Below, in pieces: positions 27,006 to 28,802 of a stretch of DNA of 64,000 nt (positions are counted from its first letter, which is position 1; each line of letters starts with the position of its first letter). The stretch spans positions 684 through 64,683 of the forward strand of contig CAMAWC010000005.1 of the NCBI GenBank assembly GCA_945861875.1. The letters are read 5' to 3'. Under the pieces are notes generated by a model. That model ran no database searches and was not told where the DNA came from. It saw only the letters and a list, made by a program, of their open reading frames with translations. The translations under genes and the position numbers were made by a program. The DNA comes from Bordetella parapertussis (GTDB lineage Bacteria; Pseudomonadota; Gammaproteobacteria; Burkholderiales; SG8-39).

Positions 27006-27692
27006 TCAGTTTGACTGGGGGGCAAGGGTGGAACGGCGGTTGCGCAGGTAACCAAGACCGAGCACACCGCCGATAACGGCCGCATACAGGATCCAGTGCA
27101 GGGTGGCGTGAAGCTCGAAGTATTCCTTGATCAGCGGCTCGCTCGACACCATCTTGGCGGCGGTCCAGGCGAGCACAGCGGCGCCGATGTAAATGATCGA
27201 CGGGAAGCGCTCCACCCAGTGCAGTATCAATTGGCTGCCCCAGATGACGATCGGAATGCTGATCAGCAGGCCCAGAACCACCAGCAGGAAGTTGCCGTGG
27301 GCGGCACCGGCCACCGCAAGGACATTGTCCAGGCCCATCACCGCGTCGGCAATGACGATGGTCTTCATCGCGCTCCAGAAACTATGCGCCGGCGTGACGT
27401 GGGCATCTTCATTGTCGTTGGGGCACAACAGTTTGTAGGCGATCCAGACCAGCAGCAACCCGCCGACCAGCAGCAGGCCGGGAATCTTGAGCAGCCAGAC
27501 GACCACGACGGTCATGGTGGTGCGCACCACAATGGCGCCAACGGTTCCCCACATGATGGCTTTGCGCTGCAAGTGCCTGGGTACGCCGCGCGCGGCCAGC
27601 GCAATGACTATGGCATTGTCGCCTGCGAGCACCAGGTCGATAATGACAATGGCCAGCAGCGCGGAAAAAAACTCGGGTGAAAACAGTTCCAT
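27006..27692 (-). CDS. TerC/YjbE family integral membrane protein
   Basis: ATG at 27692 (the track start 27695 is a GTG one codon upstream). MELFSPEFFSALLAIVIIDLVLAGDNAIVIAL... is a hallmark TerC motif. Confidence 0.88.
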   Translation of the reverse strand: MELFSPEFFSALLAIVIIDLVLAGDNAIVIALAARGVPRHLQRKAIMWGTVGAIVVRTTMTVVVVWLLKIPGLLLVGGLLLVWIAYKLLCPNDNEDAHVTPAHSFWSAMKTIVIADAVMGLDNVLAVAGAAHGNFLLVVLGLLISIPIVIWGSQLILHWVERFPSIIYIGAAVLAWTAAKMVSSEPLIKEYFELHATLHWILYAAVIGGVLGLGYLRNRRSTLAPQSN

Positions 27693-27743
27693 CACACACT
27701 CCCCTCGCCCGGTTCATGTTTCCATCAGGCAGGGTGGGCGTAT

Positions 27744-27884
27744 CCTTTGCCGGACGGCAAAGGTCTCGCCAGTACCCGGTTCCGTGTCCGGGTATCCACA
27801 CAACCGGGGCCCGTTAGGAACCCGTGATGACGGCGGTGTGGCACACAGCATTGCGGCTGCGCGTGGCTACTCCCCTTTGTAGGG
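27744..27884 (-). promoter_or_regulatory. yybP-ykoY (Mn2+) riboswitch-like leader of the TerC-family gene
   Basis: The minus-strand RNA reads ..cuaCAAAGGGGAGUAGCCacg...GGUUGUGUGGAUACCCGGacacggaaCCGGGUACUGGCGAGACCUUUGCCguccGGCAAAGG.. . The invariant 5' and 3' ends of the motif are present, and the classical downstream gene family follows. Confidence 0.75.
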
Positions 27885-27942
27885 TGCGTCCTATCTGAAC
27901 GCAGACGGATTATCGGCAGCGGGCGCCGCCGACACCAGTGAG

Positions 27943-28207
27943 CAAATGCAATGTCTGTTATTGCGATATGCGATGCCTGTTATTGCTCATTGCAATATCT
28001 GCACTTGCAATATGCGATGCCTGTCATTGCACCACTCAATGTCTTCCATTCGAAACATCCGATGCTTGCTATTGCCCGGTTCAATATCCGTCATTGCAAT
28101 GTGCAATGCCTGTTATTGCCTATGTCAATATCTGCTATTGCAACATGCAATGTTCGTCATTGCCCACCGCAATACCTGCCATTACATGTTGCAATAACAG
28201 CGAACTT
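27943..28207. repeat. 12 tandem 22-bp units (one is 23 bp), consensus nnnnTGCAATryCTGyyATTGC; alternating GCAAT/ATTGC half-sites
   Basis: Hand alignment gives unit starts at 27943, 27965, 27987, 28009, 28031, 28053, 28076, 28098, 28120, 28142, 28164 and 28186. The region is AT-richer than its surroundings. A 22-bp period is not a multiple of 3. Confidence 0.9.
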
Positions 28208-28235
28208 GCCGCCGGACCGCCTCGCGTGCTACAGT
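28206..28235 (+). promoter_or_regulatory. Candidate sigma70 promoter (TTGCCG-N18-TACAGT) for the plus-strand riboswitch-like leader
   Basis: The hexamers sit at the right edge of the 22-bp array, about 30 nt upstream of the aptamer-like sequence. The call is by motif only. Confidence 0.35.
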
Positions 28236-28265
28236 CCGCTGCCTTCCTTAGCGGGAAGGCTCCTC

Positions 28266-28364
28266 CAAAGGGGAGTAGCTTTTAGCAGCCCGTCGTCAAT
28301 ACGAAGCCCCAGGCTTCCGGCGCGGCTGGCAGCCGGAACACCGGTTGCAAGCGAGACCTTTGCC
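28266..28364 (+). promoter_or_regulatory. Second yybP-ykoY (Mn2+) riboswitch-like element
   Basis: CAAAGGGGAGUAGCuuuuagc...CUGGCAGCCGGaacaCCGGUUGCAAGCGAGACCUUUGCC. It has the same invariant ends and the same P1 pairing (CAAAGG/CCUUUG) as the minus-strand copy. Confidence 0.6.
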
Positions 28365-28393
28365 AGAACAAGCAAAGGTCCAGCCATGTGCGA

Positions 28394-28426
28394 GGCCTTT
28401 ACCTGTTTGAGGTAAAGGCTTTTTTG
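28394..28426 (+). terminator. Intrinsic terminator; likely the expression platform of the plus-strand riboswitch
   Basis: GCCTTTACC-tgtttga-GGTAAAGGC is a perfect 9-bp stem, followed by TTTTTTgTTT and located 32 nt before the next ATG. Confidence 0.8.
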
Positions 28427-28457
28427 TTTCATACTCGCAAAACTTTGGAGGTTCCAG

Positions 28458-28802
28458 ATGAGAAACGCAACGCTGCGACGCTACTTTCGCCACGGCATCT
28501 TCACCCAGTTGATGGTGTTTGAGGCGGTGGCCCGCCTTGGCAGCCTGACACGCGCCTCGGAAGAGCTGCACCTTGCACAGCCGACGGTCTCGGTGCAAAT
28601 GAAAAAACTTTCCGAATCGATGGGGGTCAAGCTGCTGCGCATGAGCGGGCGCGGCGTGGAACTCACCGATGCCGGACGCGAGCTGCTCGCCTGCTGCTGG
28701 GAAATCAGCGGGGCCCTTGGCCACCTGGAGGAGAGACTCGCACCATTGCGCCCGGCCAAGGACATCGCCATCCCGATACTCGCCCCCCCGCCGGAAGCCT
28801 GA
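28458..28802 (+). CDS. LysR-type HTH DNA-binding domain plus linker helix only (114 aa); no effector-binding domain
   Basis: GGAGG precedes the ATG by 6 nt. LMVFEAVARLGSLTRASEELHLAQPTVSVQMKKLSESMGVKLLRMSGRGVELTDAGRELL is a canonical LTTR N-terminus. The ORF stops about 20 aa after the linker helix. It could be a truncated remnant. Confidence 0.7.
   Translation: MRNATLRRYFRHGIFTQLMVFEAVARLGSLTRASEELHLAQPTVSVQMKKLSESMGVKLLRMSGRGVELTDAGRELLACCWEISGALGHLEERLAPLRPAKDIAIPILAPPPEA

Follow-up and report, generated by a model that had tools for sequence, protein, structure and literature searches.

A twelve-unit tandem array, probably an amplified operator, between divergent TerC-family and LysR-type HTH-only genes

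The subject of this analysis is a tract of short tandem repeats in a window of 64,000 nucleotides from an assembly filed under Bordetella parapertussis (GCA_945861875.1, contig CAMAWC010000005.1, positions 684 to 64,683 of the forward strand); positions given below are those of the window. The organism is an uncultured proteobacterium whose nearest named relatives carry the label Burkholderiales. The tract lies inside a 765 bp intergenic region between two divergent genes. On the minus strand, at 27006–27692, is the gene for a putative metal-transport membrane protein of the TerC family (YjbE subfamily), followed by a Usp gene. On the plus strand, at 28458–28802, is the gene for a LysR-type protein of 114 amino acids (aa) made up of a winged helix-turn-helix (HTH) and a linker helix only. 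Each gene is preceded by a structured leader with resemblance to the Mn2+ riboswitch, and the two leaders that flank the array are inverted paralogous copies of one another.

Anatomy of the array

The array occupies 27947–28211, without assigned strand, as delimited by Tandem Repeats Finder, by its register, by position-wise conservation and by counts of its pattern in shuffled sequence. With the register set from 27947, there are 12 tandem 22 bp units with the consensus TGCAAT-rYCTGyy-ATTGC-nnnn, the first half-site of which is more loosely yGCrAT. Unit 4 has 23 bp, units 5 and 6 are degenerate, and unit 12 overlaps the plus-strand -35 box. The original prediction, made from the letters alone, had described 12 units of 22 bp, one of them of 23 bp, with degenerate units at the edges and in the middle, and this description is borne out by both the register and Tandem Repeats Finder, which reports a period of 22 at 27942–28152 (9.6 copies, 62 % matches) and a period of 44 at 27947–28183 (5.4 copies, 71 % matches, score 183). 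By our own count, the 24 in-register half-sites comprise 14 exact ones and a further seven with one mismatch, so that 21 of the approximately 24 half-sites that had been proposed are present within one mismatch. Exact GCAAT occurs eight times in the array and 91 times across the 64 kb, and exact ATTGC nine and 79 times, respectively. The 18-mer TGCAATNNCTGNNATTGC, allowing up to three mismatches, has 24 matches in the window, 18 of which are inside the array; in the shuffle control the mean was 7.4 and none of 100 shuffles reached 24.

Across the unit junctions the half-sites form the dyad ATTGC-N5-GCAAT. This can be written as ATTG-N7-CAAT, with a T at position 2 and an A at position 14, and therefore fits the T-N11-A definition of the dyads of LysR-type transcriptional regulators (LTTRs), as had been suggested. 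Allowing one mismatch, there are nine such sites in the array and two elsewhere in the 64 kb. Two sites at the ends of the array stand closest to the flanking promoters, which are described below. On the TerC side is a tripartite site, GCAAT-N7-ATTGC-N5-GCGAT, at 27948–27974, with its dyad centre near -65 of the putative TerC promoter; its spacing to the CCAGTG/CCAATG box, read by eye, equals that in the single-operator relative L139. On the other side, the dyad ATTAC-ATGTT-GCAAT at 28181–28195, also in T-N11-A format, is centred near -55 of the promoter of the HTH gene and is, judging by sequence comparison, the ancestral operator core.

The half-sites had been described as alternating every 10 and 12 bp on one face of the helix. 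The alternation holds when they are read as GCAAT and ATTGC. When they are read as tetramers, CAAT-N7-ATTG-N7-CAAT, the cores are even, 11 bp centre to centre; the 10/12 alternation is therefore a consequence of counting the flanking G or C into the half-sites. Because 11 bp per half-site compares with a helical repeat of about 10.5 bp, there is a drift of about 17 degrees per half-site. A single helix face is thus kept locally only, and the whole array winds roughly once around the helix.

The tract is AT-richer than its surroundings, as had been noted, with a GC content of 0.42–0.46 against 0.60–0.66 in the flanks. Its plus-strand frames are likewise open, with three open reading frames (ORFs) across the array. 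These are not conserved in relatives, since most of the tract is missing there, and the tract is non-coding. As RNA, the array folds better than shuffled sequences (z = -3.6), as palindromic units would lead one to expect. A simple consensus scan found no promoter-like site inside the array.

Distribution, copy number and sequence change

Thirteen lineages were compared: that of the window and L130, L133, L136, L139, L219, L222, L225, L228, L230, L232, L233 and L234. Among the matches listed in a metagenome protein scan, L139 alone was a close relative. The divergent pair of TerC and HTH-only genes is present in nine of the 12 further lineages (L130, L133, L136, L139, L219, L225, L228, L230 and L232), with other neighbouring genes differing in L228, L230 and L232. 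In the short contigs of L233 and L234 the TerC-side leader motif alone is visible, and the L222 contig does not reach the TerC side. The leader of the HTH gene recurs in all 12, and in L230 and L232 the riboswitch-like leader motif is on the HTH gene only, not on the TerC side.

The number of operator copies differs greatly between these lineages. A single 27 bp tripartite site, rCAAT-N7-ATTGC-N5-GCAAT, is found in L139, L133, L234 and L228, while L232, L136 and L230 have a single ATTrC-N5-GCAAT core alone, in L230 as the symmetric variant ATCGC-N5-GCGAT. Two copies are present in L233 (80 bp apart), L222 (53 bp), L130 (about 85 bp) and L225. The array of 12 units is limited to the window and its sister lineage L219/L220/L221, the HTH protein of which is 93 % identical. 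With one or two sites in most lineages and 12 in two, the array goes back to the tandem amplification, in its own lineage, of an operator that was already there. The core itself, ATTrC-N5-GCAAT, is upstream of the HTH-only gene in 12 of the 13 lineages, the right half being degenerate in L139. It lies shortly before the -35 box, at a matching position in L219, L133, L228 and L232; in L234, L230, L233, L130, L222, L225 and L136 the distance to the box is smaller or larger.

Independent duplications of the operator are located, in the coordinates of the upstream regions, at about 205–320 in L233, about 90–170 in L222 and about 275–385 in L130, and across the lineages the operator region has been recurrently remodelled. 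A scan of reference genomes with four copies of ATTGC-N17 returned, among the matches listed, unrelated 11 or 22 bp tandem repeats, none of them GCAAT-N7-ATTGC; this pattern is too permissive and is uninformative on other genomes.

A comparison of copy numbers between strains, as a check for variable-number tandem repeat behaviour, had been proposed, and its outcome does not support such behaviour. An identical TerC protein is encoded on 10 contigs, which come from lake metagenomes and one metagenome-assembled genome (GCA_037129715.1). All contigs of the window population (n = 10) have an intergenic region of 765 bp, with zero to six single-nucleotide polymorphisms. In L219 and L220 this region is 767 bp and contains 12 units; as far as the partial contig L221 reaches, it is in agreement with them. 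The unit number is therefore 12 in all 12 full-length contigs from the two array-bearing lineages. As both the window and L219 have 12 units and the same degenerate units 5–6, the two arrays are considered to be orthologous.

Change between these two arrays is unevenly distributed. Three of 55 ATTGC positions differ between the window and L219, compared with nine of 54 GCAAT positions, 20 of 77 N7 positions (the central G being invariant in 20 of 20 units) and 23 of 54 positions in the N5 spacers (43 %). At the third codon positions of the two flanking genes, 60 of 344 have changed (17 %). The difference between ATTGC and spacer is supported by a Fisher test (p = 3.8e-6), and if ATTGC changed at the rate of third codon positions, the binomial probability of seeing no more than three changes in 55 would be 0.009. 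Across both arrays, ATTGC is retained in 20 of 24 units, or in 20 of 22 without the terminal unit 12. On this comparison, the retention of ATTGC argues for selection on the half-sites. The spacers have changed faster than third codon positions, which suggests some unit shuffling or gene conversion, and strict orthology of individual units is accordingly uncertain.

Flanking genes, leaders and promoters

In the 114 aa protein, Pfam recognizes HTH_1 (PF00126) only; the effector-binding domain (PF03466) is absent, as the protein stops after the linker helix. The AlphaFold2 (AF2) model, with a pLDDT of 86.5, has a short N-terminal helix, the winged HTH and a long linker helix, with helices at residues 14–27, 30–37, 41–55 and 71–97 and the wing at 60–69. 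The top Foldseek matches are CcmR (5y2v) and the DNA-bound DNA-binding domains (DBDs) of CbnR (5xxp, TMt 0.86) and BenM (4iht, TMt 0.89). Pfam, AF2 and Foldseek thus agree with the earlier suggestion that the neighbouring protein is a LysR DBD, and show that it has no effector domain. The stop codon of its gene is 60 bp from the convergent DctP gene. Compared with L219, the gene has 10, 2 and 29 differences at first, second and third codon positions, which indicates purifying selection.

The homologues form a large family (P0001–P0120) of short HTH-only proteins of approximately 110–127 aa, or 111–123 aa on long contigs. In the alignment, the N-terminal LRRYFRHG and the recognition helix QPTVSxQ are invariant. 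Wherever the neighbour is visible, the HTH-only gene has a TerC/YjbE gene as its divergent partner. The LRRYFRHG motif is also known from full-length LTTRs (P0121, with 318 aa and 64 % identity; P0122; P0127; P0147), and based on this shared motif the short form would seem to have branched off from a CbbR-like subfamily. As a negative control, 17 full-length CbbR-like LTTR loci among the matches listed were inspected, and in none of these are the dyads, the LRRY motif or the leader motif present. In L230, the operator ATCGC-N5-GCGAT (at about 108–122 of the upstream region) coincides with the substitutions V46T and M48I in the recognition helix of P0063. Co-variation of the recognition helix with the dyad was set aside as evidence, because this one informative case (L230/P0063, QPTVSTQI) is too few to use.

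On the opposite side, the TerC protein matches the NCBIfam model TIGR03717, 'R_switched_YjbE putative metal transport protein', with 235.9 bits against a cutoff of 134.8. The gene is likely to encode a manganese exporter.

The leader of the HTH gene (28243–28457, plus strand) contains a Mn2+-riboswitch-like aptamer (CAAAGGGGAGUAGC ... GCGAGACCUUUG) and a GGAGG ribosome-binding site, and ends in an intrinsic terminator at 28392–28422. The paralogous leader of the TerC/YjbE gene (27693–27902, minus strand), which resembles the same Rfam family, RF00080, and stands in inverted-repeat relation to the plus-strand leader, has its ribosome-binding site paired in the minimum-energy fold. Both fold far better than shuffled sequences, with z-scores of -6.05 for the plus-strand and -4.06 for the minus-strand leader. 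When 11 HTH-side leaders are aligned, CAAAGGGGAGUAGC and GCGAGACCUUUG are invariant, as are GGGGAGUAGC and GCGAGACC, and six pairs have compensatory changes. Against RF00080, with its gathering score of 45, the plus-strand leader scores 17.5 bits (E 0.016), the minus-strand leader 12.9 bits (E 0.36) and the orthologous leaders 17.5–29.9 bits (18.5–29.9 bits for orthologues of the TerC leader); RF00080 is the one family matched recurrently, no other riboswitch family appears, and at the gathering threshold Rfam gives no match in the whole window. Both leaders are therefore described as Mn-riboswitch-like, being below the Rfam threshold for membership of RF00080. They may represent a divergent yybP-ykoY variant that is missed by current models, of which one copy, with a terminator, precedes a transcription factor gene.

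Two promoters flanking the array had been predicted, and aligned -10 and -35 patterns are in agreement with this. The putative sigma-70 promoter of the HTH-gene leader (28207–28236, plus strand) has the -35 box TTGCCG at 28207–28212 and, after an 18 nt spacer, the extended -10 box TGcTACAGT at 28228–28236. Most of the 13 lineages have the pattern TTGCnn-N17/18-TGnTAnAnT at a fixed distance upstream of the GGGGAGTAG motif; it is loosest in L136, L228, L232 and L230. For the TerC leader, the putative promoter (27909–27937, minus strand) has a -10 box GATAAT (reverse complement of 27909–27914) and a weak -35 box CTGGTG (reverse complement of 27932–27937). Here the -10 box aligns with that of the paralogous plus-strand leader, and the -35 box corresponds to the CCAATG box conserved in relatives, which have TTGGnn there. 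A simple consensus scan calls neither of these promoters. If both are correct, the array fills the space between the two -35 boxes, upstream of both starts, and the distance from -35 to -35, approximately 44 bp in the ancestral arrangement, is approximately 269 bp with the array.

Elsewhere in the window, at 1098–1814, there is a 146 bp tandem repeat (4.9 copies, 95 % matches), the units of which contain nested inverted repeats, GTCATTCCCGCGCAAGCGGGAATCCATGGGGTT ... AACCCCATGGATTCCGGG ... CCGGAATGAC, and have a REP- or MITE-like look.

Interpretation and known systems

It is very likely that the array is an amplified transcription factor operator, whichever protein binds it. That it is bound by the neighbouring HTH-only protein is, taken as a whole statement, probable. 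The ancestral state, which most of the related lineages still have, is one 27 bp tripartite site between the back-to-back promoters of the TerC/YjbE and HTH-only genes. The 22 bp unit expanded to 12 copies in an ancestor shared by the window lineage and its sister lineage. The first and third half-sites of the ancestral site are direct repeats 22 bp apart and could thus have been a substrate for slippage or unequal exchange. Each promoter has retained its proximal site at the original position, matching the single-operator relatives, while ten added units moved the promoters approximately 225 bp further apart and brought about nine additional sites, which are nearly in helical phase. The HTH-only protein, with its dimerising linker helix, is envisaged as binding the ATTG(C)-N5-(G)CAAT dyads as a dimer, with one dimer for every 22 bp and a maximum of about 11. 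As 22 bp is close to two helical turns, bound dimers and the bends that they introduce would be roughly in phase, and could build an extended cooperative or titrating nucleoprotein complex, or wrap the DNA by way of in-phase bends. Such a complex may reshape the dose–response of the two promoters and make each independent of the other. The binding protein, the sign of its regulation, the higher-order structure and the effect on transcription are all presumptive in this scheme.

The same is true of Mn2+ as the ligand. Since synthesis of the HTH protein is gated by a terminator-bearing, Mn2+-riboswitch-like leader, the RNA and not an effector domain would be the point at which the signal comes in. 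Tentatively, then, the riboswitch-like RNA may replace the LysR effector domain and gate a protein reduced to its DBD, which would act on the promoter region that its own gene shares with the TerC/YjbE gene, with the 12-fold phased operator giving threshold-like or cooperative control by many dimers; this possibility is put forward with some doubt. On the same tentative proposal, the multi-dimer assembly would be, by analogy, a chromosomal and transcriptional counterpart of the iteron and parC types of array.

A number of points weigh against the proposal that the HTH-only protein binds and is organized by the array. Another factor could be the one that binds. The palindrome within the units, CAAT-nnCTGnn-ATTG with its conserved CTG, is not in T-N11-A format and is left unexplained by dimers on the junction dyads. 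The dyad near -55 overlaps neither -35 box, which is not the classical geometry of LTTR autorepression. Units 5–6 have lost their half-sites in the window as well as in the sister lineage, which means that maintenance does not extend to all units, and the suggested uncertainty in unit orthology weakens the assumption behind the substitution test. Lastly, the assignment of the leaders as riboswitches is below the Rfam threshold.

The alternative that takes up several of these points is an operator array bound by a different regulator, either a full-length LTTR of the same subfamily, encoded elsewhere, or an unrelated metal regulator of the Fur/Mur or MntR type, with the HTH-only protein as a competitor, a dominant-negative partner or unrelated to the array. 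Full-length LTTRs with a near-identical DBD, including LRRYFRHG, are available in P0121 and its like, the genes concerned are manganese-related, and 19 bp palindromic Mur boxes are known from other proteobacteria (PMC1698941); the conserved central CTG is also not accounted for by an LTTR dimer on the junction dyad. However, the dyad stays with the promoter of the HTH-only gene across lineages, even in L230 and L232, which lack the TerC-side leader, it has the T-N11-A format, and in the gene tables of the examined lineages no other regulator gene is conserved beside the locus. A different binder is considered unlikely. A neutral origin, in which the array is a product of slippage and function is limited to the two sites nearest the promoters, the inner units being carried along, is judged improbable. 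The 22 bp direct repeat of rCAAT in the ancestral site would favour slippage, L233 and L222 have independent duplications with other periods (80 and 53 bp, respectively), L130 and L225 also have a second copy, and units 5–6 have degenerated in both array-bearing lineages. Yet variation or decay would be the expected fate of a neutral tandem array of 22 bp units, and here the copy number is equal in 12 full-length contigs from different samples and two diverged lineages, and ATTGC is kept in 20 of 24 units despite divergence of 17 % at third positions and 43 % in the spacers.

The original prediction had likened the array to iterons or a centromere, and it does share with R6K-type iterons its 22 bp period and with parC its approximately 12 phased repeats, in an AT-rich tract. 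An iteron-type replication origin or parC-like partition centromere is nevertheless very improbable, as the gene tables for roughly 20 kb around the locus are free of Rep, ParA/B and ParM/R genes to a distance of about 10 kb, and list chromosomal genes with housekeeping roles as neighbours (RelA/SpoT, malic enzyme, PGI and RsgA). In addition, blastn against 72,556 plasmid records gave no match, and orthologous loci have one or two units, the array being placed exactly between two conserved promoters. The comparison with iterons as a matter of function is therefore not upheld. Equally little credence is given to transcription of the array as a structured RNA, or to its coding for a repeat peptide. 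The fold z-score and the three open plus-strand frames might be taken to support either, but the array is upstream of both conserved promoters and the excess of folding is expected from palindromic units. Moreover, no promoter-like site was found within it, and no ORF or RNA is conserved, most relatives being without the tract.

Literature searches on related subjects, among them yybP-ykoY with LysR and effector-less LysR proteins, gave no description of a module of leader, HTH-only protein and TerC, and this combination, in which the LysR protein lacks an effector domain and the leader is riboswitch-like, is conserved and apparently undescribed. If the amplified-operator interpretation is true, this would be a natural example of a transcription factor operator multiplied at a chromosomal promoter, the resulting array being long, phased and maintained in evolution. 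Relatives with one, two or 12 copies are a ready series for relating site multiplicity to response. The work that one LTTR normally does may, in this module, be divided between a sensor made of RNA and a DNA-binding protein.

Among known systems, the leaders are closest to the yybP-ykoY Mn2+ riboswitch (RF00080). They carry GGGGAGUAGC and GAGACC, one of them has a TerC/YjbE gene downstream, and they have as their expression platforms a terminator in one case and a paired ribosome-binding site in the other. Unlike the riboswitch as modelled, they score 12.9–29.9 bits against a gathering score of 45, and a second copy precedes a transcription factor gene, being the sole copy in some lineages.

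The array itself resembles the R6K-type 22 bp iterons and the R1 parC site, with its ten 11 bp ParR sites, in having phased tandem repeats with a periodicity of 22 or 11 bp, and like these it could carry a nucleoprotein complex of many dimers. It differs in being chromosomal, without rep or par genes, and derived from a single promoter operator, and its units are palindromic pairs of half-sites, not direct iterons. Clusters of binding sites can also act as titrating sites or decoys, as does the datA locus of Escherichia coli for DnaA. Many sites at one locus could likewise buffer or sharpen the availability of a protein here, although in this case the copies are regular 22 bp tandem units between probably regulated promoters, and titration is a hypothesis.

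The nearest counterparts to the individual sites are the operators of LTTRs, in which T-N11-A is contained within a dyad that may be imperfect, for example ATAC-N7-GTAT for BenM, that is bound by a dimer with bending of the DNA by about 45 degrees (PMC11495319). The location of the present array is that of such an operator, the HTH_1 gene at 28458 (plus strand) being divergent from the TerC gene at 27692 (minus strand). Its interrupted dyad of 15 bp is situated ahead of the -35 box, in the interval that separates a LysR-type gene from a divergent target, and the adjacent 114 aa protein has the LTTR fold of winged HTH and linker helix. As the effector domain is missing from this protein, no tetramer would be expected, nor the sliding-dimer mechanism between regulatory and activation binding sites (RBS/ABS). 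In contrast to the usual regulatory site with activation sites, there are 12 tandem sites, the site lies off the regulator's own promoter, and both genes have riboswitch-like leaders.

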